A model generated the notes under the pieces. It was not told the origin of the DNA. It was given only the letters and a program-made list of their open reading frames with translations, and searched no databases. 64,000 bases of DNA from Planctomycetota bacterium (GTDB lineage: Bacteria > Planctomycetota > UBA1135 > GCA-002686595). The translations under genes and the position numbers were made by a program. Each line of letters starts with the position of its first letter. Within the stretch, counting starts at the first letter, position 1. Below, piece after piece: positions 14,051 through 61,455 of this stretch. Location of the stretch: contig JAYUUV010000009.1 in NCBI GenBank assembly GCA_043754695.1, forward strand, positions 670 to 64,669. The letters run 5' to 3'.

Positions 14051-14105
14051 CGGCGGGGCACTTATGCGCTGCGCGGGCGCCGATCGCAAGCGCGCGCTGA
14101 ATTCC

Positions 14106-27938: not shown

Positions 27939-29261
27939 TCAGGAAGGAGCCAGGCTCCTGACCCTGACTCTCAGCACACGCCTGTCCGTAACCTCCGACA
28001 CCTGAAACTCACTCCCGCCACGTACGAAGGATTCTCCGCGCAGCGGAAATCGCCCAAACTCGGCCAGCACGAAACCACCCAGAGTCTCGTAATCAGCGGT
28101 CTCCGGGAGGTCGAGGTCGATCAACTCGTTGACTTCGCTGACGTGCAATGCGGCATCGATCTCGACCACGCCGCCGGGCAGCTGCTTCAGCGGGCTCGGC
28201 GCCTCTTCGTCCGATTCGTCGTGCAGTTCGCCGACGATTTCGCCGAGCACGTCACCCAGCGTGACCAGCCCTGCCGTGCCGCCGTACTCATCCAGCACGA
28301 TCGCGAGCTTGATCTTTTCGCGGCGGAATTCCTTGAGCAGCTCCGACACGAGCTTGGTCTCCGGCACGAAGTACGCGGGCCGCAGGAGCGAGCGCAACGA
28401 TCGCTCCGTGGCGTTGGTGTCGACCAGCGCCGTCATCAAGTCGCGCGCCGAAATCGTGCCGATCACGGCGTCGAGCTTGCCTTCGAAGACCGGCAGGCGG
28501 GTGTAGCCGGATTCGGAAGCGATGCGGGCGGACTCGGCCAAGGGCGTGTCGACATCGATCGCCTGGACCGAAGTCCTGGGTGTCATGACCGCGGCGACGT
28601 CGACCTCGCGCACATCCATGATGTTGCCGATCAGTTCGCGCTCGGTGGCATCCAGCGGCCCCGAAGCTTCCGTGTCGGCCACGACCTCGCGCAGGCCCGC
28701 GACAGTCTCCCGCGCGTCCTCTGGATCTGCGCCCTGCCCGAAGAGCCGAATCATGCCTCTGCGCACCGCGTCGAGCCCGAGCGCCAATGCCGCGATCGGC
28801 CACTGCAACCAGTGAAATACAGGCAGGCAGCGGCGGACGATGCCCTCGCCCCAGCTGGATGCCAATGCCTGGGCCAGTGCCTGGGTCGAGATCCACAGGC
28901 AGGGCACCGTGATCGCGAGCGATGCGAGCGTCACACCCCAGGTCACCTGGCGGCTCTCCGAGAACCAGCGCACGATCAGGGTCGCGAAGAGCGCCGCGCT
29001 GGCGGTCTCGAACATGCTGGCCGATGTGGTCAGCTGGCGAGATCGTTCCAGGCGCTCACGCAACTTGGCGCGCCGCGCTGGATCCCGCTCGGACTCGAGC
29101 ACCCGGCCGGCGGGCGTCTGCCCCAGCGAACGTCTCAGCGCAGCGAAGGCGGCAGAGAAGATCAGCGCAACCAGTGCCCCGGCCAGGGCATGGAATTCAA
29201 GCTGAGTCAGATCGACGTCGGAGGTTCCGACGACGGACAGGAACGACAGGGCAGGATTCAA
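27939..29261 (-). CDS. CNNM/CorC-HlyC family transporter-associated protein (DUF21 + CBS pair + CorC_HlyC)
   Basis: The N-terminal TM region is followed by …ELIGNIMDVREVDVAAVMTPRTSV… (CBS pair), then …IVLDEYGGTAGLVTLGDVLGEIVGE… and the C-terminal …ETLGGFVLAEFGRFPLRGESF… The ORF-track start is a TTG, so the start is uncertain. Confidence 0.85.
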   Translation of the reverse strand: MNPALSFLSVVGTSDVDLTQLEFHALAGALVALIFSAAFAALRRSLGQTPAGRVLESERDPARRAKLRERLERSRQLTTSASMFETASAALFATLIVRWFSESRQVTWGVTLASLAITVPCLWISTQALAQALASSWGEGIVRRCLPVFHWLQWPIAALALGLDAVRRGMIRLFGQGADPEDARETVAGLREVVADTEASGPLDATERELIGNIMDVREVDVAAVMTPRTSVQAIDVDTPLAESARIASESGYTRLPVFEGKLDAVIGTISARDLMTALVDTNATERSLRSLLRPAYFVPETKLVSELLKEFRREKIKLAIVLDEYGGTAGLVTLGDVLGEIVGELHDESDEEAPSPLKQLPGGVVEIDAALHVSEVNELIDLDLPETADYETLGGFVLAEFGRFPLRGESFVRGGSEFQVSEVTDRRVLRVRVRSLAPS

Positions 29262-29465
29262 TGCGATTCGGGAAGCGGAGCGGCCGGGGAAGCCTGACCG
29301 CAGGGGCGGACATTGTAGGACGGGAGCGGGGTCGCCGGGTGATGGGGCCTGGTGCTCGGCTGGAATGTGTTACGAAATCGCTCCAAATCCCCGAGACCGT
29401 TACGAGGTCGTGCCAGTTCTCTGGCCTCCAGGTCCGGTTTTAGCCCCTCCACCCCAGCCGAGGAA

Positions 29466-29521
29466 ACACTTAAATATCTACAGCTACATATGTTAGGAGA
29501 ATATTAGAGAGCAAGAACATA
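29466..29521. promoter_or_regulatory. AT-rich island in a divergent intergenic region (candidate promoter/UP-element/nucleoid-protein site)
   Basis: ACACTTAAATATCTACAGCTACATATGTTAGGAGAATATTAGAGAGCAAGAACATAG is roughly one-third GC by hand count, in a window that is otherwise about two-thirds GC. It lies 30 nt upstream of the sigma-factor ORF. No confident -35/-10 assignment was possible. Confidence 0.35.
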
Positions 29522-29551
29522 GACCGGCACGCGCTCTGCACTTCATGCGCC

Positions 29552-30343
29552 ATGGTCACCACCCTTCGCGCCGTGCCCGGCTTCGGTTCGGGCTCCCTGG
29601 CGGGCTTGGCGCTGCCAGCTCCTATCCGCCGCAGCCTGCTTTCCCGGGGTGTGCTGCTCGAGAGCCGCCCAGGCGAAGCCCCGACCACTTTCGCCGAGCG
29701 GATCGACACGGCCTTGATGGCCCTGTTCCGTGACACGCACGATTCCGAGTGTTTCGAGGCCCTCTATCAGCGCACATCGGCTGCTGTGGTCGACTGGCTT
29801 CGCCGCCTGATGGGGCAGCGGCGCGCCGGAGTCGATCCGCTGGATGTCCTGCAGGACACGTTCGTCAACGTGTACCAGTACTCCACCCGCTTTCGCGACG
29901 AACGGCCGGACAGTTTCCGAGTCTGGGTGCGGACGATCGCCTCGAACGCGTTGCGGCGTGCACGCTCTCAGGTGCCGCGGCGACCCGAAGAGCATGAACT
30001 CAACGCCAGAGCGGAGCCCGCGGCCCCACGTGCCGAACCCGCGCGTCGGCTCGACGAAGAAGAAGAACAGCGCCGGCTTGCAGTGGCCTGGATGCTCTTC
30101 CTCGACCACTACGCCCGGGCCTACGCGAGCCTGGCCGCGCGCGATCAAGCTGCGCTCGCCCTCGTGGAACTCGAGCGGCTCAGCTACGCGCAAGCCGGCG
30201 AGCGGCTCTCGGTGGGCGCCTCCAATATGAAAATGATCATGTTCCGGGCGCGCCAGCGCCTGATCGGGCGCATGAATCACTCGCTGGGCTGCGCTCGGCA
30301 GGAGACGCCGCGCAAGGCAGCGGCGCTTCTGGCTGTTGGATAG
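29552..30343 (+). CDS. ECF-type RNA polymerase sigma-70 family factor
   Basis: Region 2 is FEALYQRTSAAVVDWLRRL…LQDTFVNVYQ…FRVWVRTIASNALRR. Region 4 is LALVELERLSYAQAGERLSVGASNMKMIMFRARQRL. An alternative start at the ATG at 29717 (MALFRDTHD…) would give a more typical ~208-aa protein. Confidence 0.85.
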   Translation: MVTTLRAVPGFGSGSLAGLALPAPIRRSLLSRGVLLESRPGEAPTTFAERIDTALMALFRDTHDSECFEALYQRTSAAVVDWLRRLMGQRRAGVDPLDVLQDTFVNVYQYSTRFRDERPDSFRVWVRTIASNALRRARSQVPRRPEEHELNARAEPAAPRAEPARRLDEEEEQRRLAVAWMLFLDHYARAYASLAARDQAALALVELERLSYAQAGERLSVGASNMKMIMFRARQRLIGRMNHSLGCARQETPRKAAALLAVG

Positions 30344-30397
30344 CCCACCGGCCGATCCTCGGACCCATCGGGGGCCGCTGCTCGCTACTCTGGGTCG

Positions 30398-31687
30398 GTG
30401 AACATTCCGGCAGTGCGCACGATCGACCTGCTCGTCCACTCCGCCGGGGAATTGTGCACGGCCATCGGCACACAGCCGCGCGGCGGATTGGACCTGGGCG
30501 CGATCCGCTGTGTCAGCGACGCGGCCGTTGCGGTCGATGCCGGCCGTGTGCTGGCCGTCGGTCCCACGGCAAAGTTGCGGCGCGAATTCTTGGCGCGTGC
30601 CGAACTCGATGCCGAAGGCGGGCTGGTTCTGCCCGGATTCGTCGATGCGCACACGCATCCGGTCTTCGCCGAGGGTCGCGAGGACGAATTCGAGTTGCGC
30701 ACGGCGGGCAAGAGCTACGTCGAGATCGCCGCGCTGGGCGGCGGAATCCTCTCCAGCGTGCGCGGCGTGCGCGCCGCATCGAAAGATCGCCTGCTCGAGC
30801 TCGTGCAGGCGCGTCTGGAGCGCTTCGTGGACCTGGGCACGACCACGATCGAAGCCAAGAGCGGTTATGGGCTTTCGTTGGAGGCTGAGCTCAAGTCACT
30901 GGAAGTGCTCGCCGCATTGCGCGCGCGCGGTCCGATCGACATCGCGCCGACCTTTCTTGGCGCCCACGAAGTCCCCGAGGAATTTCGCGGGCGCAAATCG
31001 GCCTACGTCGATCTGCTGCTCGAGGAATGCCTGCCGCGCGTGGCTGAATTGAAGCTGGCCGAATACGCCGACGTTTTCACGGAAAGTCACGTCTTCGATC
31101 TGGCCGATTCGCGGCGCCTGATGGAGCGCGCGCGCGCACTGGGCCTGGGTCTGCGCATGCACGTCGATCAACTCACTTGCCTGGGCGGAGCCGAGCTTGC
31201 CGCGGAACTGCGCGTCAGCTCCGCCGATCACCTGGAGTTCGTCAGCGACGGCGGGATCCGGGCACTGGCGGCGAGCGCCGTCGTTCCCGTGCTGTGCCCG
31301 CTCGTTCCGCTCTACCTGCGGATCGAGCGCGAGGCGCCGGCGCGGCGCATGATCGACGCCGGTTTGCCCGTGGCGATCTCGACCGACTACAACCCCGGTA
31401 GCTGCCCGCAACAGAGTCTCGCGCAGGTGATGACCTGGGCTGCGCTGCGCTACCGGATGAGTTCGGCCGAGTGTTTGACTGCGGCGACGCTGAATCCCGC
31501 CTGCTCGCTGGGCCGCGGCGACGAGATTGGCACGCTCGAGCCGGGCAAACGCGCCGATCTGGTTATCTTCTCCTGCCCGAACTTGCGCCGGCTGGTCAGC
31601 GAGTTCGCTTCGAGCCCCGTGCGCGCGGTCGTCGTGCGCGGCCGCGTGGTTCGCGGTAGCAGTCGTGTGCGCGTGCCTGGTCCCTGA
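30398..31687 (+). CDS. hutI: Imidazolonepropionase
   Basis: LVLPGFVDAHTHPVF…GKSYVEIAALGGGILSSV…TTTIEAKSGYGL…TFLGAHEVP…ADHLEF…ISTDYNPGS…GTLEPGKRADL is collinear with HutI amidohydrolase motifs. Confidence 0.9.
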   Translation: MNIPAVRTIDLLVHSAGELCTAIGTQPRGGLDLGAIRCVSDAAVAVDAGRVLAVGPTAKLRREFLARAELDAEGGLVLPGFVDAHTHPVFAEGREDEFELRTAGKSYVEIAALGGGILSSVRGVRAASKDRLLELVQARLERFVDLGTTTIEAKSGYGLSLEAELKSLEVLAALRARGPIDIAPTFLGAHEVPEEFRGRKSAYVDLLLEECLPRVAELKLAEYADVFTESHVFDLADSRRLMERARALGLGLRMHVDQLTCLGGAELAAELRVSSADHLEFVSDGGIRALAASAVVPVLCPLVPLYLRIEREAPARRMIDAGLPVAISTDYNPGSCPQQSLAQVMTWAALRYRMSSAECLTAATLNPACSLGRGDEIGTLEPGKRADLVIFSCPNLRRLVSEFASSPVRAVVVRGRVVRGSSRVRVPGP

Positions 31688-31717
31688 GTCGTCCTTTTCC
31701 ACAGAGCCTGTTCATCG

Positions 31718-32611
31718 ATGTCGATCGTCGAGTGCGTTCCCAACTTCAGCGAAGGTCGTCGACCCGAGGTCGTCGATCGCATCGTCGCGGCGCTTGCCTC
31801 GGCGCCCGGCGTGCGCGTGATCGATCGTTCGATGGACGCAGGGCACAACCGCGCCGTGATCACCTTCGTCGGCTCCGATCTCGATGTCGGCGAAGCTGCC
31901 TTCCGTGCCATCCGCGCGGCCGCGGGCGAAATCGACCTGCGCACGCACACCGGCGAACACCCGCGCATCGGCGCGAGCGATGTGGTGCCCTTCGTGCCGG
32001 TCGCCGGCGTGACGCTCGAACGCTGTGTCGAGATCGCCCACGCCTTGGGCGAGCGCGTCGGCCGCGAACTCGAGATCCCTGTCTACTTCTACGAGGCCGC
32101 CGCGCTGATTCCGGCGCGCCGCAATCTTCCCGACGTGCGCAACATCGGCTTCGAGAAGCTCAGCGCTGCCGTGCTCAACGATCCCGCGCGCGCGCCCGAT
32201 CGCGGCCCCGCCAAGCTGCATCCCTCGGCCGGCGCGACCGTGATCGGTGCGCGCCAGTTCCTGATCGCCTACAACGTCAACCTCGAGAGCGCGGATGTCC
32301 AGGTCGCGAAGGAGATCGCGAAAAAGATCCGCGAGAAAGACGGCGGGCTGCCCGGCATCAAGGCCATGGGTTTTTTCCTCGACGATTTGAAGTGCGCCCA
32401 GGTCAGCATGAACGTCTGCGATTTCCAGCGCACCGGCCTGCTGCGTGCCTACCAGGAGATCGAGAAGCTCGCCGCCGAGCGCGGCGTCAAGATTCGCGAA
32501 AGCGAACTTGTCGGACTTGCCCCGCGCGCCGCGCTGGGCGACGGAATCGCCGCGCGCATCCAGTTGCGCGGTTTCGATCCCAAGCGTCAGATCGTGGAGG
32601 AGTTGATCTGA
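31718..32611 (+). CDS. Glutamate formimidoyltransferase
   Basis: MSIVECVPNFSEGRRPEVVDRIV… is the hallmark N-terminus of the formiminotransferase (FtcD N/sub) domain. Length is 297 aa. Confidence 0.85.
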   Translation: MSIVECVPNFSEGRRPEVVDRIVAALASAPGVRVIDRSMDAGHNRAVITFVGSDLDVGEAAFRAIRAAAGEIDLRTHTGEHPRIGASDVVPFVPVAGVTLERCVEIAHALGERVGRELEIPVYFYEAAALIPARRNLPDVRNIGFEKLSAAVLNDPARAPDRGPAKLHPSAGATVIGARQFLIAYNVNLESADVQVAKEIAKKIREKDGGLPGIKAMGFFLDDLKCAQVSMNVCDFQRTGLLRAYQEIEKLAAERGVKIRESELVGLAPRAALGDGIAARIQLRGFDPKRQIVEELI

Positions 32612-32613
32612 AC

Positions 32614-33819
32614 ATGTCGCTTTGCCGCACGTCTCGCGGGGTCCGGCGCGCAGTCGTCGGCTGCGCCCTGATGTTCTTCGCGCTGCTTTGGCCAACGGCC
32701 GGCGCCAGCGCGTACATCGCGCCGCAGACGCCACCACCCGCGAAAGCGCCGCCGACAGTGGACTGCAAGGTCTGCAAAGCCACGGGCATCGTCCCCTGCG
32801 GCGAACATCCCAAGGAAGAATGCGCCTGGGAGAAGAGCGCGCTGTTCTGCAGTTACATCGCCGATTGCCCGGTCTGCAAGGGCACGGGTTTCATCGACTG
32901 CAAGGACTGCGACAATCCCGAGTCCGGCAAGCTGCTCGCGGCCAAGATCGCGGCGCTGCCCAGCCTGCGCGCCGAAGTCGAGAAGTACGACGCGCAGATG
33001 GGACGCAAGCTGCGCAAAGCAGTCTCGACGCATTTCACATTGGTGTGGGAGATCGACAGCCTGAAGGTCGAGAAACGCATCGTCGGCGCGCACGAACTGA
33101 CGCACATTTACCTCGACCGGCTCGAGCAGTTGTTCGCGCTCTATATCGATCTGACCAAGGCGCGGCCGGGCGAAATCGTCAAGCGCCAGAAGGTTTTCGT
33201 CTGGTGGCTGGTCAATGATCAGCAGGAGGCCACGCTGCGTTTTTGTCAGCAGGGTTCGGCCAATGGCGTGAAGCTGATGGGTTCGGAGTCGGCCTACTCG
33301 ATCTGCGGCAACCGCCAGTTCTTCACGACCGACGAGCGCCTGCACCGCAACATCGTGCACAGCGTGACGCACCTCTTGTTCGCGCACGAACAGCCGAGCA
33401 TGTGGATCGGCAACCTCAAGGCCGGCTGGGTCGAAGAGGGCCTGGCCCACGTCATGGAGGACCGCATCTTCGGTATCTGCGACAACTACTGCTACGAGGA
33501 GCAGAACACGAACAACGATTTCCACAGCGGCAAGTACAAGGTCGCCATGCGCAAGATGATCGTCGATGGCAAGTCACCGCCCGTCTCGGACGTGATCGGG
33601 CGCAATACCGATCAGTTGAAGTTGCCCGAGCACGCTGTGGCCATGAGCCTGGTCGACTACCTGCTGCAACGCGAGCCGGGCAAGTTCGATCTGTTCGGGA
33701 AGCGCCTGCGCTCCAAGGTCGCGGTGCGCGATGCACTCCGGGCTGCGTTCGGGATTTCGCCGCTGGAACTGGAGACGGCCTGGAAGGCCTGGGTGCTCGA
33801 GACCTATCCCAAGCAATGA
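32614..33819 (+). CDS. Secreted protein: DnaJ-type CxxCxGxG zinc-finger repeats + DUF1570/peptidase-MA-like domain
   Basis: The ATG at 32614 is 2 nt after the previous stop. It is in frame with the artefactual 695-aa ORF 31732..33819, whose 5' part is out-of-frame read-through of the previous gene. The signal peptide is AVVGCALMFFALLWPTAGASA. The Cys motifs are CKVCKATGIVPC and CPVCKGTGFIDCKDC (nt 32764-32913). Later comes IVHSVTHLLF…WVEEGLAHVMED, which resembles the HExxH…EGLAEY core of DUF1570. Confidence 0.65.
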   Translation: MSLCRTSRGVRRAVVGCALMFFALLWPTAGASAYIAPQTPPPAKAPPTVDCKVCKATGIVPCGEHPKEECAWEKSALFCSYIADCPVCKGTGFIDCKDCDNPESGKLLAAKIAALPSLRAEVEKYDAQMGRKLRKAVSTHFTLVWEIDSLKVEKRIVGAHELTHIYLDRLEQLFALYIDLTKARPGEIVKRQKVFVWWLVNDQQEATLRFCQQGSANGVKLMGSESAYSICGNRQFFTTDERLHRNIVHSVTHLLFAHEQPSMWIGNLKAGWVEEGLAHVMEDRIFGICDNYCYEEQNTNNDFHSGKYKVAMRKMIVDGKSPPVSDVIGRNTDQLKLPEHAVAMSLVDYLLQREPGKFDLFGKRLRSKVAVRDALRAAFGISPLELETAWKAWVLETYPKQ

Positions 33820-35243
33820 TGCTCGCGCTGCTCTTCGCGCTGTGCACGCAGTCGCCGTCCGCGGCGAGCGAGACGCAAAGTGTGCTGGAGCTTGCGATGG
33901 ACGCGCATTTTCGCGTGGCGCGCAGCGAACGCGAACTCGCCTTCTTCGAGCGCTATGCCCGCGCTTCGGATGAAGCCAAGGCGCGCGCGCGCGGCGTGCT
34001 GGAGAGATTGCGCGCGCCCGGAACCGCCAGCGCTGCGCCGAGTTCGTCCCCGGCCGTGGCCAAGGCGCTGCGCGCGCTCGAGACACCTGTGGCAACTCCG
34101 AATGCGGATGCGGCGCGCAGGCGCGAACGCCTCGAGGAACTCGTCGACTCGCTCGACCTTCAGGCGACTCCCGGAATATTCGCGGCAGCGAGTTCGCTCG
34201 AGGGCAAACTCGTGCACATCGCCATCTCGCCGCTCTATCCGCTCAAGGAACGCCCGCAAGTCAGCCTCTCGCTGGTCTGGATCCTGCCCGATGGCTCGGA
34301 ACGACTGGCCTATCGCGGGCTGGTCAAGCCCGCGCTCTTCGGCGGGGCCGGTTTCGGCGTCCAACTCGGTTTCCCAGGCCACGAGCCCGGCACGCGGCGG
34401 CTCGCGATCGAAGTCGAGTGCGACGGCATCAACGTACGCGGAGAGCCCTTCGAACTGCAGTGCGTCGCCGCGCTCGACGAGCGCGCGAAGCAGGTCTTCG
34501 CCGGCCTTGTCGAGCTCGCCGATCCGCGCATGCCGCTCGCGAATTGGATGGCGCTCGACGCGCAGCGCGGACTGCGCACGCTGGCGCGAGTCGATGCCGA
34601 GCAACAACTGTCGCGGCTGGAGAGCAAGGCGAACGCCGCACATGCTTACCCGTGGTTGCTCGCGTTCGCCGCGTCCGAGGGCGATGCGCAGTGGATCTGG
34701 CGTTTGGATCCGCCGGGTGCGCCGCAGGCCACGTTGCTCTTGTTGTGCCCGTCGACGGAACCTGCCGAAGCCAGCCTGTCGCGAGCCGAATGGGCCGGCC
34801 TGGCAGGTTGGCGTGTGCTCTCGATGCACCTGCCGCGCGGCGGCGCGGGCGAAGGCACGACGCAAGAATTGTTCGCGCGTCTCAGTTCCAGGTTGGACGA
34901 AAGCGGCGAAAAGCTGCCGCTGGTCTGCGTCGCGCGCGGCGATACCATCGGCAAGTTCGCCATGGATTTTTACGGCGCGAAATCGCGGCCGTATGACGCG
35001 GAGGTGCTGCTGATGTCGGCAGCGCCCGCGAGCCCGGAGAGCCTTGCGGGCAGCGTGCCGCGCCTGGTGCTCGCTCCGGGCGGCCGGGCAACGCCGGAGG
35101 GCTGCGCGATCGGCCCGCAGACTTGGTGGCTCGACAGTTCCACGCTTGCACTGATCGCCGACTTCGAATTGCCGACGCGTTTGAAGTCGACGCTGCCGCT
35201 GCTGCTTGGAGCGCTGCGCGAGTCATCGAAGGAAGCGAAGTGA
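33816..35243 (+). CDS. Hypothetical secreted protein
   Basis: ATGATG at 33816 overlaps the previous stop (ATGA). The signal-like N-terminus is MMLALLFALCTQSPSAAS. 475 aa, no motif recognised. Confidence 0.55.
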   Translation: MMLALLFALCTQSPSAASETQSVLELAMDAHFRVARSERELAFFERYARASDEAKARARGVLERLRAPGTASAAPSSSPAVAKALRALETPVATPNADAARRRERLEELVDSLDLQATPGIFAAASSLEGKLVHIAISPLYPLKERPQVSLSLVWILPDGSERLAYRGLVKPALFGGAGFGVQLGFPGHEPGTRRLAIEVECDGINVRGEPFELQCVAALDERAKQVFAGLVELADPRMPLANWMALDAQRGLRTLARVDAEQQLSRLESKANAAHAYPWLLAFAASEGDAQWIWRLDPPGAPQATLLLLCPSTEPAEASLSRAEWAGLAGWRVLSMHLPRGGAGEGTTQELFARLSSRLDESGEKLPLVCVARGDTIGKFAMDFYGAKSRPYDAEVLLMSAAPASPESLAGSVPRLVLAPGGRATPEGCAIGPQTWWLDSSTLALIADFELPTRLKSTLPLLLGALRESSKEAK

Positions 35244-36907
35244 GAGGACTTTTCGCCGTACTGATCGCTTTTGCGCTCTGGTTCGTTCCACCGCCGACTC
35301 GCTTCGAGGGCGCGCAAAGTTTGCGGAGCGCTGAAAGTTGCTATCGCATGCGCATGTGCGAGTTGGCGTTGTTCACCGGCGAGAGTCCGCTGCAAGATCG
35401 CCTGCTGGAATGGCGCGCGGGCGAGTACGTTCCCTACGGCGCCCTGGCGCCCGCGGCGAGCGCGTTCCTGCTCGGACGGCTCGTGCCACGTGTGGCGCAG
35501 GCGGTGGAGCAGGGCGATCTCGACGAAGATGCGCTTGCCGACGGAGCGCGGCGCCTGATGCTCGTGCTGGCCTGGATCGCGGCGCTTTCGATCATGTTCG
35601 CAGCCTCCAAGCTCAGGTTGCCTGGGGACCCGACGGCGCAGGCCGGCCCCTGGGTGTTCGCCTGCTCGCTTGGCATCGCGCTCGTCTGGACCGCGCTCGT
35701 GCTTGCGCCCTCCGTCGATGGTGGATCGGTGCGGCCGGCTGTCTGGTCGCTGCTTTTGTGTTCCGCCGTGCTGGGCGGAGCTCTCTTGCTCGCGCGTCCC
35801 CACGAACTCGGAGACCTGATCGGTTTGGCGATCGGTGTCGGCGTGCTTGCCGGCCTCGCGCTTGCGAACGATCCCTTCGCCTGGAACACGGTGCTCGCAC
35901 CGCTGTGCGCGCTGGGCCTGGCCGCGCGCGAACGGCCCAAGAATTTGCGTCGCGACAGCCTGCGCGCGGCGATCTTCTTCAGCGCCACGACGCTGATCGT
36001 GTCGCTGGTGCGAACTCCCTGGCCGGCGGGTACGTCGCCGTGGCCGAGATTCGAGCTCGCTTGGGCAGCGCCATCGCTTTCGTCAGCCGAACTCGCAATC
36101 GACGCGCTGTGCCTTGCGGCAATCGCCTGGCTGTTGCTGCGGGCACGGGACTGCACGCAGCGGCGCACGTTGAGCGTGGTGCTCGTGCTCGGTTTCGTGC
36201 TGCGCATGATCGACGCGCGTTTCGCCGCGGCCCCGCTGGCCGCCGCCGGTTGCGCGCTGGTGTGTTGGACGCAAGCGCTGGCGAGCGACGGCGAGCGCAG
36301 TCCTGTGCGGCGCGCGCTGCCGATCGCCGCCGCCGCCGCAATGCTCGTGGCGATCGCCTGGAACGACAACGCGCCCTACACGACGGCTTCGATCCGTGCG
36401 CTGCGCGAGCTGCGCCAGACCACGCCGTCCGGTGGCGCGTGGAATCATCCGTTGGCCAGGCAGGAGTATGGGATCCTGGCCAATCCCGAATTTGGAGGAA
36501 TGATCGCCTTCCACGCTCGCCGGGCGTCGTGTGGCGCACTGCTTCCCGGCGCCACGGCGAGTGAGGCCGCGCGCAGCACGGCCGGTGCGCTGCTCTGCAA
36601 GTCGATCGAAGAGCTGGCCGCGCGCGCGCGCGAACTCGGCGCGGCCTATGTGATCGTGACGCGCCGCGATCTGGAGCGCCCCGCAGCCTGGCTTGCGCTT
36701 GCGGGGCAGGAAGCCGCGACCTCTGACGGCGTCGTCGCCGGGACGGGAGTGCTGCCCGAATTGCTCGCTCGAACAGAGCTTGCTGGTTTCGAATTGCTGC
36801 GTCGCGTGGCCGCGCCTGGCGACCCAGAGGGTCCGGCTGAGCTGGCGGTTTGGCGGCTCGTCAGGCCCGCGTTCCTGCACGAACCGGCAGCGCTGCGAGC
36901 GCGATAG
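35240..36907 (+). CDS. Polytopic membrane protein, STT3/AglB-like (GT-C fold) with degenerate WWDYG position
   Basis: The GTG at 35240 overlaps the previous stop (GTGA). There are multiple hydrophobic segments over residues ~1-375, then a soluble C-terminal domain. By eye, SAESCYRMRMCELALFTGESPLQDRLLEWRAGEYVPYG resembles the STT3/AglB first-loop block (DxYYhxR…G…D…YPxG). IRALRELRQTTPSGG…QEYGILANPEFGGMIAFH resembles the (L)xxLxxNTP…YGVxSWWDYGHWI block, and …LGAAYVIVT resembles …gvrYVIV. Confidence 0.55.
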   Translation: MRGLFAVLIAFALWFVPPPTRFEGAQSLRSAESCYRMRMCELALFTGESPLQDRLLEWRAGEYVPYGALAPAASAFLLGRLVPRVAQAVEQGDLDEDALADGARRLMLVLAWIAALSIMFAASKLRLPGDPTAQAGPWVFACSLGIALVWTALVLAPSVDGGSVRPAVWSLLLCSAVLGGALLLARPHELGDLIGLAIGVGVLAGLALANDPFAWNTVLAPLCALGLAARERPKNLRRDSLRAAIFFSATTLIVSLVRTPWPAGTSPWPRFELAWAAPSLSSAELAIDALCLAAIAWLLLRARDCTQRRTLSVVLVLGFVLRMIDARFAAAPLAAAGCALVCWTQALASDGERSPVRRALPIAAAAAMLVAIAWNDNAPYTTASIRALRELRQTTPSGGAWNHPLARQEYGILANPEFGGMIAFHARRASCGALLPGATASEAARSTAGALLCKSIEELAARARELGAAYVIVTRRDLERPAAWLALAGQEAATSDGVVAGTGVLPELLARTELAGFELLRRVAAPGDPEGPAELAVWRLVRPAFLHEPAALRAR

Positions 36908-36954
36908 TCCGCGCGACAGTTGGGCCTTGTTCCCGGTACCGCTATGGTGCGCCC

Positions 36955-39363
36955 ATGGGGAAAGCGCTTCGCGTGGTCCTGGGTGTCCACGCACACTGGA
37001 CCGGTTCGCAGTGGGCCGCCATCGACAACGTCCTGGAGCAGGCGCTCGAGACCGCCCTGTCCGCAGCAAAGCGCCATGGGGCCGCCTGTGCCGTCGATTT
37101 CGACGCGCGCGGGCTCGAGGAATTGGCCGCGCGCTCGCCTGTGGTTCTCGAGCGTCTGCGCGCAGCGCTCTTGGAGCAGCGTGTCGAACTGACCGGTGCC
37201 TGTTACGCGCAACCCTGCGCCGGGTTGAACGGCGGCGAATCCAACATACGCCAACGTGTGCTCGGCGCGCGTGTCGTCCAGCGCTTGCTCGGCCGGCGCG
37301 TGCGCGCGATCTGGGAGGGCGCCCCCTCGATCCACCCGCAACTGCCGCAGATCCACTCAGGCCTGGGCATCCAGGCCGTCGGTCTGGTCCCCGCGATCGA
37401 GGAGTGCAGCAGCGACGTTCCGCTGGATCTGCACGAGTGCTTCGTATGGCAGGGCCCGGATGGAACGCAGCTGCGCGCGCTTGGCGCAAGTTCGCTGTCG
37501 ATGGCCTTCGCGCGCGGTGATTTCGACGCGCAGGTCGACGGGCTGCCCGCCGGCGAGGCTGCCTCCGTACTCATGGCCTGGGTGCCGCAGGATGAGCAGC
37601 GCGCGGCCGAATTCTGGGGCCGCATCGACGCGTTGCGCGCCGATCCGCGGCTTGCCTTCCAGGCAACTGCGTTCAGCGCACTCGTTCGCGATCTGGCGCC
37701 CAGGGCGCAGGGCGAACCGATTCGCATCGGCAACGATGAAGTGTTCCACGGCTACGCGCCCGCCAAGAACGGCGATCTGCTCGGGCGCGGCGTCGCCTGG
37801 TGCGAAGAGCAACTGCTCGCGGCCGAAGCGCTCGCCGCGTTGCTGGGAAGATTGCGCGACGTCGATCGCGAAATGGCGACCTGGCCCGCGTGGGAGCTCG
37901 ACGAATCCTGGCGCGAGTTGTGCATCGCGCAGCACCACTCGATCCCGGCTCGCGAGGGCCGGCTGGCCGCGGTGGCCGAATGTTCGATCGAGCGCTCGCT
38001 CGCGCTGGCGCAGGAGGTCCACGAACGCACGCTGTTTCAACTCGGCCAGAGTGTGCAGGGGCTCGAGGGCGGTCACCTGGTGCTCAATCCGCTGGGCTGG
38101 GCGCGCGATGTGCTGCACGACAGCGGCGTGGCCCGCGCCGTGCCGCCCTTTGGTTACAAGGTCGTCGATCCCTATGAGTTGGACAGCACGCCGCTCGGCC
38201 GCGTGCGCGTGCGCGAAAACGACGAACGCATCGCGCTGGTGCGCGGACGCATGCGCGTCGAGATCGACCGCAGCCGCGGCGTGATCGAGCAAATCTCGAC
38301 ACGCGAATTTCCGGAGGGGCTGCTCGATCCCGCGCGGCCGCTGCTCGATTTTTCGCTCGTGCGCGGCGGGCGAGAAGAAAAATTCCCCGAGGCGGAGGTG
38401 GCGAGTTCGTCGACCGAAGAAGAGGAAACGGACGAGCTGACCATTCGCCGCATTGGCCGCGGAGGCGTCAATCTGACGATCCAGGTCGCGATCGAGCCTT
38501 TGTTCGACGCGGTCTGGATTCGAATCCAGTCCGAGGATCTGCCGCGGCCCGATGCCGGCGCCCAAGCCGGGCTGCGCTGCGTGCTGCGGCCGCGCCTCGC
38601 GGGTGAACTCAAGTTGCGCGCCGACTCGCCCTATGGCGTCGGAGAAATCCGCGCAGAGACTTCGCGCGAGCGTCGCGCACCGCGCGGCGCAGGCCGGAGC
38701 GAACTCGTCGATACACTTCTGCGGCCCTTCACCGCGCTGCGTTTCGCAGACCTGTCCGCCGCAGACGGCCGGCGCGGTGTGCTCTACGTGCACGACGGTG
38801 CACCGTCCTTCGCGCGTATCGATGGGGGCTTCGAGCATTTGCTGTCGACGGTCGATCCTCTGGATCCAGGTTCGTTCGAAAGCGCACTGATGGCGGACCT
38901 GTGGATCGTTCCTCACGCCGGCATGGACGACGCAGCGCGCATGCGCCGCGCGATGGAATGCACGCTGGGCAATCCGCGTTTCATGCAGAGCACGGAAATT
39001 CGCGGCGGTGGGGTGCTGCCCGCGGCGATGGGCGCGCTGTCGGTGAGTCCCGAGCACGTGCTCGCCACGGCTTTTTGGCGCGAGCCGGCCAGCGCGCGCG
39101 AACACGTGGAGCACGCGCTAGGCACGGGCATGGACGCCGTGTTTGCGGTGCGGCTTGTCGAATTCTCTGGTCGCGCGGCCAAGGTCAAGTTGCGCGTCGC
39201 CGGCAGCTTGATGCGCGCCGCGCGCACCGATCTGCTGGGCGAAGTCCTCGAATTGCTTCCTGTCGAGCGCTGCGACGCGGCCTTCGGGCCCGGAGAAGGT
39301 CCCTGGAGCGAGATCAGCCTGGAGCTTGGAGCCAATGCGATCGCGACAATTCACTTCGTGTAG
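36955..39363 (+). CDS. Glycoside hydrolase family 38-like (alpha-mannosidase-like) protein
   Basis: The ATG at 36955 starts MGKALRVVLGVHAHW…. The segment LLEQRVELTGACYAQPCAGLNGGESNIRQRVLGARVVQRLLGRRVRAIWEGAPSIHPQLPQIHSGLGI parallels the GH38 N-domain block (GRxExxGGMWVEPDxNLPSGESLxRQxLxGxRFFxxxFG…WxPDxFGxxxQLPQIxxxxGI). No signal peptide is obvious. Confidence 0.5.
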   Translation: MGKALRVVLGVHAHWTGSQWAAIDNVLEQALETALSAAKRHGAACAVDFDARGLEELAARSPVVLERLRAALLEQRVELTGACYAQPCAGLNGGESNIRQRVLGARVVQRLLGRRVRAIWEGAPSIHPQLPQIHSGLGIQAVGLVPAIEECSSDVPLDLHECFVWQGPDGTQLRALGASSLSMAFARGDFDAQVDGLPAGEAASVLMAWVPQDEQRAAEFWGRIDALRADPRLAFQATAFSALVRDLAPRAQGEPIRIGNDEVFHGYAPAKNGDLLGRGVAWCEEQLLAAEALAALLGRLRDVDREMATWPAWELDESWRELCIAQHHSIPAREGRLAAVAECSIERSLALAQEVHERTLFQLGQSVQGLEGGHLVLNPLGWARDVLHDSGVARAVPPFGYKVVDPYELDSTPLGRVRVRENDERIALVRGRMRVEIDRSRGVIEQISTREFPEGLLDPARPLLDFSLVRGGREEKFPEAEVASSSTEEEETDELTIRRIGRGGVNLTIQVAIEPLFDAVWIRIQSEDLPRPDAGAQAGLRCVLRPRLAGELKLRADSPYGVGEIRAETSRERRAPRGAGRSELVDTLLRPFTALRFADLSAADGRRGVLYVHDGAPSFARIDGGFEHLLSTVDPLDPGSFESALMADLWIVPHAGMDDAARMRRAMECTLGNPRFMQSTEIRGGGVLPAAMGALSVSPEHVLATAFWREPASAREHVEHALGTGMDAVFAVRLVEFSGRAAKVKLRVAGSLMRAARTDLLGEVLELLPVERCDAAFGPGEGPWSEISLELGANAIATIHFV

Positions 39364-39445
39364 TGCCGCGCTGATCGGGATTCGCGGGTCACAGACGCCG
39401 CGCTCCTCCGTACGACAGATTTTCACGGCCCCTCGCCTCTCGCCC

Positions 39446-40324
39446 ATGAAGCTAGCTTTCAAATTGGTCGCATTGGTTCTTCTGCTCGTCGCACCGAGTC
39501 TTGCTGCTCAGCAGCACGGAGAGCTGCGCAGTCTCGCGCCCGATGGGCTCGCGCTCGGCGGCTTCGACCCGGTCAGCTACTTCCCCGCGGGCGGGATGGC
39601 CGCCGCGATTGGCAGCGAGAAGTTCGAGTTCAAACTCGGGCCGGCGCGCTATCGATTCGTCAGTGCCGAGCATCTGGCGTGGTTCAAGAGCGAGACCGAA
39701 CGCTACGAACCGGCGTACGGCGGGTTCGATGCAGCATCGATTGCTGGTGGGGGAAGGAAGCCGGCGAGTCCGCAGTCGTTCAAGGTGGTCGGCGCACGGC
39801 TTTTCCTGTTCGCTGAGCCGACGGAAGTGGGCGCCTTCGACGCGAAGCAGGTCTCCAGCGCCGACGAAGCCTGGAAAAAACTGAGCGGCGAATCCGCGCG
39901 CGGGGTTGCCGCCGACGACGCGCGCGTCGGCGTGAAATGGAATCTCGGCAAGGACCAACTCGCCATCGAAGGCTTCGACCCGGTCAGCTATTTCCCCGAG
40001 GGCGGCGGCTCGCCGGTGAAGGGCGATCCGAAGCTCGAAAGCGTCCTGGACGGCGCGCGCTATCGGTTTGCGAGCGCCGCGCACCAGAAATGGTTTTTGG
40101 CCGAGCCTGCGCGCTACCGCCCGAAGTACGGCGGCTGGTGCGCCTATGCCATGGTCGACGGCGACGACGTCGAAGTCGATCCGAAGTCCTTCCTGATCGA
40201 GCACAGCCGGCTCTTGCTTTTCTACAAGGGCTTCTTGGCCGACACGCGCGCGAAGTGGTTGCCCAAGGCGCAGGAATTCGCGCCGAAGGCGGACGCCGCG
40301 TGGGCGAAGCACGCGCTCAAGTGA
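39446..40324 (+). CDS. Secreted tandem YHS-domain-like protein
   Basis: The ATG at 39446 gives the signal peptide MKLAFKLVALVLLLVAPSLAA. There are two repeats of GFDPVSYFP…G…ARYRF(V/A)SA(E/A)H…WF…P.RY.P.YGG. Only the second repeat has the YGGWCAY Cys. Confidence 0.7.
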   Translation: MKLAFKLVALVLLLVAPSLAAQQHGELRSLAPDGLALGGFDPVSYFPAGGMAAAIGSEKFEFKLGPARYRFVSAEHLAWFKSETERYEPAYGGFDAASIAGGGRKPASPQSFKVVGARLFLFAEPTEVGAFDAKQVSSADEAWKKLSGESARGVAADDARVGVKWNLGKDQLAIEGFDPVSYFPEGGGSPVKGDPKLESVLDGARYRFASAAHQKWFLAEPARYRPKYGGWCAYAMVDGDDVEVDPKSFLIEHSRLLLFYKGFLADTRAKWLPKAQEFAPKADAAWAKHALK

Positions 40325-40444
40325 TCCCGGTCAGGGCAGGCGCGCACTGAAAAAGAAGCGAGGCCGACCATCCCGCAGGCTGGCCGACCTCGACTGCTTT
40401 AGCGCGGCACGAGCGTCAACGCACAGTCGACACTCGCCAAGGAA

Positions 40445-43069
40445 TTACGGGCAAACCGTGAACTCGAGTCCGTTGCTCAAGGTGATGTTGTCTGGCGCGG
40501 GGAAGCCGTTGTCGCGGCCCCAGAACTGCGCGTCGACCAGCGTGCCGGCGACTTGCAATGCGGCGAGCGGAGTTCCGCCGAGCGCGCCGATCGCGAAGGC
40601 GTTCATGTCGATCGCGTACACGCCGGTGCAATCCAGTCCGCTCGGCGAACCGCCGGAGACAACTCCGACGGTGCGCTTGATGGCTCCGCCCAGGCAGAGT
40701 GTGCCACCGCCGAACGGAGTCGCGGCTTGGCCGCCCGTGCCGTAGAGCATCAGGCCAGGCTTGTTGTTGAGCACGTTCGCCGCGCTGATCGTGAAGCCGG
40801 AACCGGCCGTCGCGCTCGACGTTCCAGCGAACCCGATGCTCGGCACACAGCCCAGCGAATTGATCTTCGCCACGCAGTAGGCCGTCGGCGCCGCGCAGGA
40901 CGGGACGGGATCGATCCCGGTCACGACCAGCGCAAAGCGCGCGTTGACGCCCGGGTCGCCGCTCGCGGCATCCGTGTTGATGTCGCTCGCGATGACTTCC
41001 ACGGTCCAGGTTCCGGCCGCGGGACTTTGCACGAACACGTTTTCGACCGTGTCCTTGGTGTTGGCGACTCCGCCTGGGGTTGAGAAAAGTCCTGCAGTCA
41101 GTCCGTTGTTGCCGAAGTAGATCGTGCCACTCGGCGACGTGACCTTGAGCGTCAAATCGTTGAGCCGGGCCAGCGCCGCCCCAACCAGACCCTTGGGATC
41201 CAGGTAGCACAGGGTCGCACGGAATTCGGCTGCGCCGGGGGAAACCGTCAACGGGTACGAAACCGTTTGCAGATTCACCAGGAGCTGCGACTCATCGATG
41301 TAGAACGTGTTCAGTCGCCGGTCGTAGGTGTTCTTCAGATCGACCAGTCCCCAACCCTGCTTCACGCGCGTCAGGCCCGCGCCCGCACCACCCGCGGTCC
41401 AGTTGTAGGGATTCGCGTTGTTCACCATGAAGGCCTTGGCCGTCATTGCGTGGCAACGATTTTCGAAGACCGTGCCACCCGGATTGGGCACTGGGTTGCC
41501 AAACACCTGTTGCGACCACATCTGGAAGAAGAGTCCGAAGTGGCCGGCCGTGATCGGCGTCGCTCCGGAGGTTCCACCGAACGAACTGGTGTACGTGCTG
41601 GTCGTCGTCGTGGTGAAGATGTTGTCGTAGAAGTGCGACAGCTCCGGTTTGATCCGGCCGTCGGCGGCGGGCCCAAAGGTCGCGCTGCTGACGTTGTCGT
41701 CGGTCTTGCTCAGCGTGTTGACGTGATCGACCCCGCCGACCGAGACGATGTTCTTGGCCCAGGCCTGCGGCCGCGCACTTTGCGAGTTCGTGTTCGACAT
41801 CGACTGACAGATCACGATGTCGTTGATGAAAATGATGTCGTCGAGTTCCTGGGACTTGGACGTGTACTGCGTCGTCTGCGAATCGCCCCAGCTGTTCGAC
41901 TGGAACACGCACTTGTAAATGTCGGTCGGGTCGACGAGATCGGCGGTCAATGCGTAGCGGTCAGGCGCGGGGGAGTAGGCACTGATGAAACCCTGTCCCT
42001 TGGACAGGAGGCCTTTTGCCTGCGGATTCACGCCGTGGGCGAAGATCTGGCCGCTCGTGGACGTGCCGTGCGAGTCACTGTTCACGGCCAGGTGCGCCGC
42101 AAGCGGCAAAAATCCCGGCGCGGCGGTGAATTCCGGGTGAGAGAGCTGCGCGCCGCCGTCCATGACCTCTCCGCGCACACCGGTTCCATCGAACATTGGC
42201 GAGCCCAGCGGCTCGATGTACGTGGCGCCGCTGATCTGGCGCGCGATGTCCATGTCGTTCTCGGGCTCGCCCCACGGATCGATGAACGCGACTTCGTCCA
42301 TGCCTGCGAGCGCCACGATCATCTCGGCGTTGAGCGTTGCCTCGAAGCGGAAGCCTGAGGGGTAATTGAGGTCGATCGAGCCGCCCATGGCAACGATTCG
42401 CGAGGCCACCAGGTTCTTCTGCTCGGGCCCGCGTTCGAACACGACGACGTTGTAGCGCGCGGTCGGCGGCAGCGTTCCGCCGTTGAGGCCGTCCTGGATC
42501 GATCCGTCGAGACGGTACTCGCCGTGAAACTTGCCGATCCAGCGCACGAAGGGCAATGCACCCACATCCGCGCGCGCCATGCCGGGCAACTTGACGACGT
42601 AGGCGTGATTGCCGACGTAGTCGTAAATCGAACCGCCCAGTTGCACGATCGCCTGGCGGAATTCTTCCAGCGGCTGGGTCACGAACTGGACGATGTAGAT
42701 GTTCTCGCCGGCGGAGAGCAGCGAGTTGTCGAAGCTCGGCGCGGCGACCAGCGGGTCGAACGTCGCGCGGCGCAGCATGATCGAGTAGTCCGTCGCGGTC
42801 GAAACGGCGAAACTGCGGCCGTCCTGACTGATCGCGTAGTGGGGCGTGAGCAGGCCGTCGCTCGAACGCTCGTTCCACAGCGCCAGTTTCACCAAGGATC
42901 CCGGCACCGCGATCATGCGCGAGTCCTGGACCATTGCAGTCAGTTCACTGCCGGCGCCGTACGCCGGTGCGCCGGCGATCGCCGAGCTCGCCGAAGACGA
43001 GAAGATCAGACTCGCGAGGGCGAATCCGATCGTGGGAAGCACGCTGCTTGAGTGGGGGGCCATCCGCAA
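40445..43069 (-). CDS. Secreted subtilisin-like serine protease (peptidase S8) with extra C-terminal Cys-containing domain
   Basis: The signal-like N-terminus is followed by the catalytic-triad contexts GEVMDGG (Asp), [11 protein letters not shown] (His) and [14 protein letters not shown] (Ser). The last ~150 aa form a separate Gly/Ala/Cys domain. Confidence 0.85.
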
Positions 43070-45137: not shown

Positions 45138-45141
<4 letters not shown>

Positions 45142-48100: not shown

Positions 48101-48662
48101 GAATCCGGCTGCGACCGGGGCCACACAGAATTGGTCAGCGCTCTTCGGCCCCGGGGGCATCAAGGGCTGGGACGGCGACGCCGCGATCTGGAGTCTGCGC
48201 GGCGCGACGCTTTTCGGCCGTTCCGTCGGCATTGCGCGCAGTTCCTACATCCTCGCGCCGATGCCGGCGCAGGACATGTGCGTCGAGTTCGACGTTTTCC
48301 TGCCGCCGGGCGGCAACTCAGGTCTGTGTTATCGCGCGGAGCGACCGAGCGATCCGGCGACTACGGATCCGAGCGGAGCCCAGGCGGATCTGGGCCAATC
48401 GTATTGGGGCACGCTGTACACGCCGGAACTTGCGACCCACGGCAAACCCGATGCCGCGTTGCTCGAAGCCGCGCTCGATCGCAACGGCTGGAATCATGTG
48501 CTCGTGCGTTTCGCGGGCGATCAGCAGTCGATGGAGATCAACGGCTTCGAGACGTATTCGCTGCGCGAAGCACTTCCACCCGGTACGAAGTTCGGCTTCC
48601 AGGTGCACCAGGGCAAGCCGATGCAGGTCAGGATCGCCAACGCGCGTTGGCGCGCGCCCTGA
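45138..48662 (+). CDS. Large dehydrogenase-like beta-propeller / HEAT-repeat / CxxCH heme-binding / DUF1080 protein (PVC-type architecture)
   Basis: 1174 aa. The N-terminal block is [12 protein letters not shown]…[11 protein letters not shown]…DVDHDGRYE. The central part has long helical repeats. The single cytochrome c motif is [11 protein letters not shown]. The C-terminal domain is …[18 protein letters not shown]…[10 protein letters not shown]…[19 protein letters not shown], typical of DUF1080. The ATG overlaps the cbpA stop (ATGA). Confidence 0.8.
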
Positions 48663-52880: not shown

Positions 52881-53270
52881 ATGTCACGACGAAGTTCTTC
52901 TCGCCCGACCGACGCCGAACTGGAGATCCTGCGGATCCTTTGGCGACGGGGTACGATCTCCGTGCGCGATGTCCACGATGAGCTCAATCTGACCCGGCCG
53001 ACCGGCTATACCACGGCGTTGAAACTGTTGCAGATCATGACCGACAAGGGCTTGGTGCGCCGAGACGAGTCGAGCCGTGCCCACCTGTACCAGGCGGTCG
53101 AGTCGCAGGAGGGCACGCAGGGCAAGCTGGTGGCGGATCTGGTCGAACGCGCCTTTGGAGGATCGGCGTCGGACTTGGTCCAGCGCGCGCTCAGCCAATC
53201 GCAGGCGCGCCCCGACGAATTGGCCACGATTCGCTCGCTGATCGAGGATCTCGAACGCCGCGGGTCCTGA
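52881..53270 (+). CDS. BlaI/MecI/CopY-family transcriptional repressor
   Basis: LEILRILWRRGTISVRDVHDEL…GYTTALKLLQIMTDKGLVRRDESSRAHLYQA is the winged-helix Penicillinase_R signature. Length is 129 aa. Confidence 0.85.
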   Translation: MSRRSSSRPTDAELEILRILWRRGTISVRDVHDELNLTRPTGYTTALKLLQIMTDKGLVRRDESSRAHLYQAVESQEGTQGKLVADLVERAFGGSASDLVQRALSQSQARPDELATIRSLIEDLERRGS

Positions 53271-53299
53271 AGGCCATGGCGCCGGGCTGAAGTTCGAGC

Positions 53300-60620: not shown

Positions 60621-60623
60621 GGG

Positions 60624-60943
60624 CTAGCCTTCCATCTCTTGCACGGAGTCGGCTTCGGTGGTTTGTCGCAAGCGGAACAGGGCAATGATCAGCGCCAGAC
60701 CGACCGCCGCCTCTGCCGCCGCCACGGCGATCACGAAGATCGCGAACACGGGGCCGACCAGGTTGACGTGATCGGGCGTCGAATGCTGCCGGCTGGCGGC
60801 CAGGAAGGTCAGGTTGGCCGCGTTGAGCATCAGTTCGATGCACATCAGGACCACGATCACATTGCGGCGGATCAAGAATCCGAGCACGCCGATCGCGAAC
60901 AGCGCGGCGGCCAGGAAAAGCAGATGTTCTGTCGGGACTTGCA

Positions 60944-60944
<1 letters not shown>
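60624..60944 (-). CDS. nuoK: NADH-quinone oxidoreductase subunit K
   Basis: 106 aa, three TM segments, [28 protein letters not shown]…. Confidence 0.9.

Positions 60945-61455
<511 letters not shown>

Follow-up and report, generated by a model that had tools for sequence, protein, structure and literature searches.

The main bacterial examples known of oligosaccharyltransferases of the STT3/AglB/PglB type (CAZy family GT66; PF02516, PF22627) are the PglB proteins of Campylobacterota and Desulfobacterota. In eukaryotes, Ost3/Ost6 or TUSC3, Cys-containing accessory subunits that hold substrate, stand beside the STT3-type subunit on the non-cytoplasmic face. All known oligosaccharyltransferases are described as sharing a strongly conserved WWDYG motif that is important for their activity (PMC4287180). 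Here we describe four consecutive genes, g1 to g4, in a 64-kb window (G+C 65%) of a Planctomycetota contig, JAYUUV010000009.1; the window is the whole stretch of DNA that was analysed. An earlier reading made from the sequence alone (the sequence-only reading) had proposed that the four genes form a periplasmic system for glycan transfer and trimming or for glycoprotein maturation. We found that g3 has the predicted fold of STT3/AglB and lacks most of the catalytic signatures, and that g4 resembles glycoside hydrolase family 38 (GH38) and has lost key active-site residues. We give an even chance to the explanation that an ancestral unit of g1, g2 and an STT3-like gene has decayed, that g4 was separately derived and lost catalysis, and that the products have non-catalytic roles or, for g3, a reduced GT-C glycosyltransferase mechanism.

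The STT3-like protein g3 and its long-form relatives

As a single sequence, g3 gave no Pfam or NCBIfam match at E<0.1 and no sequence match in the PDB. It did not match the curated models PF02516 (STT3) and PF22627 (AglB_core-like) directly, and its link to them is transitive only. A word-based search recovered only six close homologues. When a profile of five homologues was compared with 1.84 billion cluster representatives, 98 relatives were found, and in an alignment of 67 full-length sequences including g3 (A7), 13 match AglB_core-like and nine match STT3. One relative, P0108, is a complete AglB with STT3, AglB_core-like and AglB_L1 domains. An AlphaFold2 model of g3 was built from the 67-sequence alignment and had a predicted local distance difference test score (pLDDT) of 88 and a predicted TM score (pTM) of 0.89; a version built from five sequences (pLDDT 50) was discarded. 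Using Foldseek against the PDB, the best match of the model was Archaeoglobus AfAglB-L (E 1.3e-10, query TM score (TMq) 0.65), followed by yeast and human STT3, the C-mannosyltransferase DPY19 and PglB. The C-terminal domain matched the globular domain of AglB-S2 (3vu0) with a target TM score (TMt) of 0.74. By predicted structure and transitive profile homology, g3 has the STT3/AglB fold.

Four catalytic signatures were compared between g3 and its relatives. The acid of the first external loop (EL1), six residues before a conserved Arg, is E32 in g3, Ser in P0003, Gln in P0036 (L004) and mostly Asp in the long-form relatives described below (DDPDAAYHLRR); we take this position to be that of yeast D47, AfAglB D47 and PglB D56. 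The second metal motif (DxD, DxE or DxH) is presumably D161/H163 in AfAglB. At this site g3 has SVRPA (163-167) and its clade SVRPA, SVSAA or SVRHE, with the Asp and the His of the motif each present in none of five members; the long forms have RIDHHV and P0108 has KVDHHV. The segment of the fifth external loop (EL5) that carries the catalytic Glu (TIXE/SVSE-type) is deleted outright in the g3 clade. In the WWDYG column g3 reads NPEFG (415-419), its sisters NPRAA or PPALA, P0108 QWDFG and the long forms xW[GS]xG, and no residue of WWDYG survives among the g3 orthologues that make up the window clade. In all, g3 is without three of the four signatures (DxH, the EL5 loop and WWDYG) and has the fourth, the EL1 acid, only as an Asp-to-Glu replacement; E32, R38, D53 and R427/R428 are retained.

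A metagenome scan with an alignment of 11 long-form sequences (the 690-aa group) yielded 30 loci, on which the window proteins were placed by tblastn. The STT3-like gene follows a sigma factor gene and hutI in L020 and L029, the sigma gene, hutI and a g2-like gene in L021-L023, and g1 and g2, with hutI further upstream, in L024 and L027. Five upstream minus-strand open reading frames (ORFs) of L020 match the sizes of the window genes for FtsH, LptE, a TPR protein, RecO and CorC. By longest-ORF calls, the STT3-like gene of L029 overlaps hutI by 4 nt. The long forms (L020-L031; proteins P0051-P0119) have 640-730 aa and are labelled Stt3 or dolichyl-diphosphooligosaccharide-protein glycosyltransferase in IMG. 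They keep the EL1 Asp, RIDHHV and an EL5 E-S-x-P motif, and have xW[GS]xGH where WWDYG is expected. The DxH Asp is found in 26 of the 42 sequences of the long-form group, and D48, D180-H181 and E362-S-x-P365 are invariant in its 690-aa subgroup (A8). A group of intermediate length (527-582 aa), with the L010 and L015 copies among its members, also has no EL5 segment and often keeps DxH or HxH. Identity between g3 and the long forms is ∼25%, compared with ∼64% for hutI across the same loci, and g3 is ∼100-135 residues shorter. Because the long forms hold the same position after sigma and hutI (and g1 and g2, where these occur), we regard g3 as their fast-evolving, shortened orthologue.

The STT3-like family has ∼100 representatives (clusters at 50% identity); where a source is named or a locus was fetched, it is that of a Planctomycetota metagenome-assembled genome (MAG). 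With the exception of the AglB-like outlier P0108, the family has the STT3/AglB fold without WWDYG. Since the motif is absent, N-x-S/T sequons are probably not recognised, and the acceptor specificity of the family is probably a different one. No account of a WWDYG-less STT3 family in Planctomycetota, of GT-C pseudoenzymes or of these decayed forms was found in the searchable literature.

The g4, g1 and g2 proteins

On g4 the Pfam model Glyco_hydro_38N (PF01074) just reaches its threshold (E 1.3e-5; 25.3 bits, cutoff 25). Matches to the GH38 middle and C2 domains are weak for g4 itself and clear for its relatives. Among its 27 homologues are proteins that carry GH38N, GH57, middle and C2 domains. 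A profile of 16 family members (A9) matched GH38 Ams1 structures with an E value of 2e-21 over positions 5-460 and the GH57 glucanotransferase 1k1w, of a related fold, with 7e-5. By these profile matches, g4 is GH38-like. In the profile alignment, the GH38 nucleophile Asp (W-l-P-D-T-F-G) falls on the second Glu of the family motif WEEEF, the metal-binding Asp of H-x-H-x-D on the Asp of HMHWVD, and Q-F-H-D on QHHD. The active site of g4 reads HAHWTG (T16/G17 for the metal Asp), WEGAP (G122 at the nucleophile) and QHHS (S329 for Asp). All six members of the window clade share these changes, as HAHW[TIA]G (HAHWTV in P0019/L004), WEG[AGQ] and QHH[SA]. No Sec or Tat signal was found in g4, and its N-terminus enters the first barrel strand directly. 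Without a signal peptide and with its active-site residues gone, g4 is most simply viewed as a GH38-like protein of the cytoplasm whose active site has been dismantled.

An intact active site is found in the g4-family members of L005 and L006 (stand-alone), L010 and L050, and a partly decayed one in L015 and P0022. The intact relative in L006 (10001-14966) lies beside genes for GH172, GH116, a PfkB sugar kinase and a GFO_IDH_MocA oxidoreductase; that in L050 (11791-16378) directly follows g1 and g2 and is followed by GFO_IDH_MocA and PfkB genes. The PfkB and GFO/IDH/MocA neighbours point to a place of the intact family in cytoplasmic sugar catabolism. None of these partners (PfkB, GFO/IDH/MocA, GH172, GH116) accompanies g4 in the window.

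The g1 product carries a clear Sec-type signal peptide, a Cys-rich region and a peptidase-like domain. Its family has 117 members, all from Planctomycetota, and motif statistics were taken from 112 of them. Eight Cys are invariant (C51, C54, C62, C79, C85, C88, C96 and C99) and include a CPVCKGTG motif; a profile of this putative zinc finger matched BSD2/DnaJ cysteine-rich structures weakly (E 0.035). Pfam Peptidase_MA_2 gave E 0.0044 on g1 (17.3 bits, under the cutoff of 32.4) and matched 9/12 family members, the best at 6.4e-7, below the Pfam gathering threshold; DUF1570 matched one member. Where HExxH is expected, g1 has HSVTH (249-253), followed by GWVEEGLAH (271-279). The residue after H249 is never Glu in the 112 members (N 48%, S 28%, C 15%), and the lack of a catalytic Glu is thus a trait of the whole family rather than a recent loss. 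A second motif, HELTH, lies at 160-164, with Glu after H160 in 59% of the family. The family shows no variation at H160, H164, H249, H253 or H279, and has Asp or Glu at position 274 throughout. In a sister clade a g1 paralogue with 28-30% identity lies between g3 and g4 (L010:14187-15389, L015:14205-15350, L016:∼6218-7258); its Cys pairs and its two HxxxH motifs are retained. Proteins of 1174-1651 aa that combine DUF7133 and cytochrome c domains with a 3-keto-disaccharide hydrolase or ThuA domain are encoded in the window at 45138-48662 (+) and in L012 (3683-8638); such large proteins recur near g1-family genes in several Planctomycetota loci.

For g2, neither single-sequence nor profile searches found a Pfam, NCBIfam or PDB relative; matches were at chance level only (a CARF nuclease with E 0.25 and, for a single member, TOBE_3). 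Homologues follow g1 in L001, L004, L010, L015, L024, L027 and L050. With a start at 33816 the N-terminal hydrophobic stretch is short, uncharged and weak, and the gene calls of the homologues have extended N-termini that reach into g1; a signal peptide is plausible. A 952-aa gene in L052 (10173-13031), with a g2-like start and a g3-like middle, was considered as a g2-g3 fusion. It was rejected since its middle and end are an Arg-rich out-of-frame translation, and it is a gene-calling or frameshift artefact.

Much of what the sequence-only reading had said of the individual proteins held up. It had called g3 polytopic and STT3/AglB-like from raw sequence, which the fold and the transitive homology bear out, and its GH38-like assignment of g4 agrees with the Pfam and Ams1 matches. 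It had given signal peptides to the first two products; this is right for g1, and for g2 it is plausible. Its statement that g3 and g1 carry degenerate catalytic motifs is borne out by the loss of DxH, EL5 and WWDYG from g3 and by HSVTH in place of HExxH in g1, and its count of two degenerate members was one short, as g4, with G122, T16/G17 and S329, is a third.

Gene layout, synteny and selection

The four genes lie in the tail of an eight-gene, 10.8-kb run, all on the plus strand, in the order sigma-hutI-ftcD-g1-g2-g3-g4-YHS (Table 1).

Table 1. Genes of the co-directional run, with positions in the window
Feature	Position	Strand	Remark
ECF-type (extracytoplasmic function) sigma-70 factor	29552..30343	+	First of co-directional run; Pfam Sigma70_r2/r4_2, TIGR02937
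hutI, imidazolonepropionase	30398..31687	+	TIGR01224 equivalog, E 2.3e-124, 415 bits vs cutoff 298
ftcD, glutamate formimidoyltransferase	31718..32611	+	TIGR02024 equivalog, E 6.8e-105
g1, 401 aa, secreted, putative Cys-rich zinc finger and Peptidase_MA_2-like domain	32614..33819	+	
g2, 475 aa, family not assigned, weak N-terminal hydrophobic segment	33816..35243	+	
g3, 555 aa, polytopic, truncated STT3/AglB (GT-C) fold (predicted) and C-terminal AglB-core-like periplasmic domain	35240..36907	+	
g4, 802 aa, GH38-like, without signal peptide	36955..39363	+	
Secreted YHS (seleno)protein-type domain protein	39446..40324	+	NF041384, E 5.6e-51; last of run

The 2-nt gap between the ftcD stop and the g1 ATG is the tightest non-overlapping junction of the run. 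Genes g1 and g2 share an ATGA overlap (33816-33819), and g2 and g3 share a GTGA overlap (35240-35243) with AGGAAG 5 nt upstream; the g3 TAG (36905-36907) is separated from the g4 ATG by 47 nt. Both overlaps and the gap of ∼47 nt are also found in L001, L004 and L019, and the 4-nt overlap of g2 with g3 is kept from the window as far as L010 and L024. For the YHS gene, the longest ORF begins at 39326 and overlaps g4; the ATG at 39446 encodes a classic signal peptide, MKLAFKLVALVLLLVAPSLAA, and is likely the true start. The junctions and the run from the ECF sigma gene to the YHS gene are exactly as the sequence-only reading had placed them. Start/stop overlaps are ordinary operon features, and the layout is real and statistically not unusual. 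The genes are on the same strand with overlaps or short gaps and no internal terminator, and the layout is kept in L001, L004, L007 and L019; from this layout, all four genes are probably co-transcribed. The products of hutI and ftcD, two genes that the sequence-only reading had left unmentioned, carry out consecutive steps of histidine catabolism. The idea that these two genes are misannotated members of the module was rejected, since both exceed their equivalog cutoffs by wide margins.

The 290-nt intergenic region between the divergent CorC and ECF sigma genes contains an AT-rich stretch at ∼29470-29530, aaacacttaaatatctacagctacatatgttaggagaatattagag, which is the sole plausible candidate, and the likely promoter region, for the eight-gene run. 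It contains no consensus sigma-70 or ECF motif. A scan of 29000-41000 found no promoter- or terminator-like sites above shuffles and no terminator-like site in the intergenic gaps, and a search for the ECF-type pattern GAAC-N15-18-CGTC gave 18 matches against 18 expected.

The full run is kept in L001, L002, L004 and L007, where g4 identity is 51-69%. In the close relative L019, g2 is internally deleted (residues 36-414). In L003 and L009, g3 is cleanly absent, with 90 nt between g2 and g4, and g2 is split; L003 is a long-read contig, and the split there may be a sequencing error. The order sigma-hutI-ftcD-g1-g2-g3-[g1 paralogue]-g4 is found in L010, L015 and L016, and hutI-ftcD-g1-g2-g4, without g3, in L050. 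L017 and L052 have hutI-g1-g2-g3 followed by unrelated genes including HisRS and are without g4. The g1 gene stands alone beside ribosomal protein S1 in L011-L014, and in L051 it is joined, in an unrelated context, by an overlapping 510-aa ORF without detectable similarity to g2. The g4-like genes of L005 and L006 occur without g1-g3, and g4 is absent beside the full-length STT3-like orthologues. The recurrent core is g1-g2, usually followed by an STT3-like gene, and g4 is an intermittent neighbour.

Around this core, hutI lies upstream of g1, g2 or STT3-like genes in nearly all related loci, the position of the sigma gene is kept in L001, L003, L004, L010, L015, L020, L029, L050 and L052, and that of the YHS gene in L001, L003, L004 and L019. 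The block FtsH-LptE-TPR-RecO-CorC/sigma-hutI-ftcD is syntenic to the same phylogenetic depth as the module. All homologues whose source is named are from uncultured Planctomycetota MAGs. The sequence-only reading had delimited a four-gene module, and a neighbourhood check agrees with it in that all four genes are syntenic in relatives (L001, L002, L004, L007) and form part of a real run. The boundary is arbitrary, however: only 2 nt separate ftcD from g1, the surrounding block is conserved to the same depth, g4 is linked only in some lineages, others have g1 by itself, and sister MAGs lack g2 or g3.

The ratio of nonsynonymous to synonymous substitutions (Ka/Ks) was calculated by the Nei-Gojobori method against L001, L018 and L019. 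Values were 0.19 for g1, 0.30-0.33 for g2, 0.31-0.39 for g3 and 0.16-0.21 for g4, compared with 0.16 for hutI and 0.11 for ftcD. By these values, g1 to g4 are all truly coding and evolve under purifying selection. Constraint on g2 and g3 is about 2-fold more relaxed than on g1, g4, hutI and ftcD, which fits the sporadic loss of g2 and g3.

On the opposite strand upstream of the run are the genes for FtsH, LptE, a TPR protein, RecO and CorC. Next to the YHS gene comes a gene for an S8 peptidase, convergent with the run; DnaJ and further genes also lie downstream. Among glycan-assembly genes, no GT2 or GT4 glycosyltransferase, flippase or polyprenyl-phosphate sugar synthase was found within the 64-kb window. 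Its sole nucleotide-sugar gene is a mannose-1-phosphate guanylyltransferase-like gene (NTP_transferase and ManC beta-helix) at 12989-14089 (-), on the strand opposite to the module and at a distance of 19 kb; a 1259-aa ORF without Pfam match (14106-17885, -) adjoins it. A BlaI/Penicillinase_R-type repressor gene followed by a gene for a BlaR1 (M56)-like membrane peptidase, a signal-transducing pair, lies at 52881-54694. A partial NADH:quinone oxidoreductase (nuo) operon with NuoH-like, NuoL/M/N-like and NuoG-like genes occupies 55535-63985 (-).

Interpretation and comparison with known systems

If the locus has decayed as we suggest, the eight-gene run would have been inherited vertically in one uncultured Planctomycetota lineage, and its evolutionary core would be g1-g2-g3, encoding a secreted zinc-finger/MA-peptidase-like protein, a family-less protein and a GT-C protein of STT3/AglB fold. 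The full-length STT3-like ancestor would have shrunk in the window clade, shedding DxH, the EL5 loop and WWDYG, and the module would no longer transfer or trim oligosaccharides by canonical chemistry. Since they persist under purifying selection, the members would probably serve for binding or as scaffolds, without catalysis, and g3 may at most be a metal-independent GT-C enzyme with a different donor. Constraint on g2 and g3 would be relaxing, with sporadic loss of these genes, and g4 would be a neighbour of separate origin, not a step of a periplasmic pathway. Several observations weigh against decay. The argument for lost activity is drawn from motifs only, and purifying selection means that the g1-g4 proteins do something. 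E32 is kept in three of five clade representatives and D53 in all 67 aligned g3 relatives, and DPY19 is among the fold matches; polyprenyl-monophosphate-sugar GT-C enzymes (PMT, DPY19, ALG6) need little beyond one EL1 acid. In g4, H12, H14, E121 and H328 are kept. In addition, all genomes are MAGs, and some gene losses or splits may be assembly artefacts.

A working envelope system of novel composition, in which g3 transfers a glycan to an acceptor at the membrane's outer face, g1 and g2 are accessory subunits and g4 trims the product or recycles the glycan, would account for the STT3/AglB fold of g3 with its retained EL1 acid E32, D53 and Arg residues, for the purifying selection on all four genes, for the tight and conserved overlaps of g1, g2 and g3, and for the adjacency of g4 to g1-g3 in two clades ∼40% diverged. 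We nevertheless consider it improbable. The signatures missing from g3 include WWDYG, which is important in all known oligosaccharyltransferases (PMC4287180), g4 has neither signal peptide nor nucleophile, and the window contains no glycosyltransferase, flippase or donor-synthesis genes. Moreover, g3 is gone from L003 and L050 while g1, g2 and g4 stay, and g4 does not occur next to full-length STT3-like orthologues. The periplasmic transfer/trimming or glycoprotein-maturation role proposed by the sequence-only reading is not sustained by the signatures lost from g3, the missing signal peptide and degenerate centre of g4 and the gene content of the window.

It is also conceivable that there is no functional module and that unrelated neighbours in a frozen, lineage-specific syntenic block are read through from the sigma/hut promoter. 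Synteny of the block from FtsH to ftcD reaches equally deep, the gene at the closest non-overlapping junction encodes a catabolic enzyme, g1 occurs alone beside ribosomal protein S1, and g4 relatives stand alone or with sugar-catabolism genes. Against this, the 4-nt overlap of g2 with the STT3-like gene is kept from the window out to L024, and the g1 paralogue inserted between g3 and g4 in L010, L015 and L016 suggests selection for g1-like proteins in this context. The g1 gene and overlapping ORF of L051 would be a g1-g2 pairing outside the hutI/ftcD block, although that ORF has no detectable g2 similarity. We judge this explanation unlikely but credible. A bolder version of the decay that we favour would have all three enzyme folds (GT-C, GH38-like, and MA-peptidase-like with zinc finger) lose catalysis and become a Planctomycetota-specific envelope machine without enzymatic function that binds, chaperones or senses peptides or glycans, co-expressed with the ECF sigma factor and derived from a WWDYG-less bacterial STT3 branch coupled to the sigma-hutI operon; this is a speculation in which we place little confidence.

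The intact, partly decayed and fully decayed copies form a natural series on how glycoenzymes turn into pseudoenzymes under selection. Where automatic annotation names such genes oligosaccharyltransferase or alpha-mannosidase, the capacity of Planctomycetota for N-glycosylation would be over-predicted.

Compared with described systems, g1 and g2 may be likened to the accessory subunits Ost3/Ost6 and TUSC3 by functional analogy only, there being no sequence or fold relationship. The H-x-x-x-H ... W-x-[DE]-E-G-x-A-H arrangement of g1 resembles that of gluzincins of the Peptidase MA clan (PF13485; DUF1570, PF07607), from which g1 differs in having no catalytic Glu after H249 and in its sub-threshold scores; by a weak profile match, its four Cys pairs resemble those of DnaJ/BSD2 cysteine-rich domains. 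With the GH38 class II alpha-mannosidases (Ams1, MngB, SpGH38), g4 shares the domain order of N-terminal (beta/alpha)7 barrel, helical middle and C-terminal beta-sandwiches, the absence of a signal peptide, and the His-x-His and QxH histidines. Unlike these enzymes, with Asp as nucleophile in W-x-P-D-x-F-G, the wider g4 family already has Glu in WEEEF, and the window clade has Gly at the nucleophile, Thr-Gly for the metal-binding Asp and Ser for the Asp of Q-x-H-D. At 555 aa, g3 is smaller than the STT3, AglB and PglB proteins of 650-870 aa and differs from them in that the second metal motif is gone, a membrane segment and the EL5 loop are deleted and WWDYG is replaced. It is like them in its predicted N-terminal multi-helix membrane domain and C-terminal periplasmic alpha/beta core, and in a long first external loop with the patterns x-x-Y-x-x-R and D-x-x-x-x-x-P-x-G.

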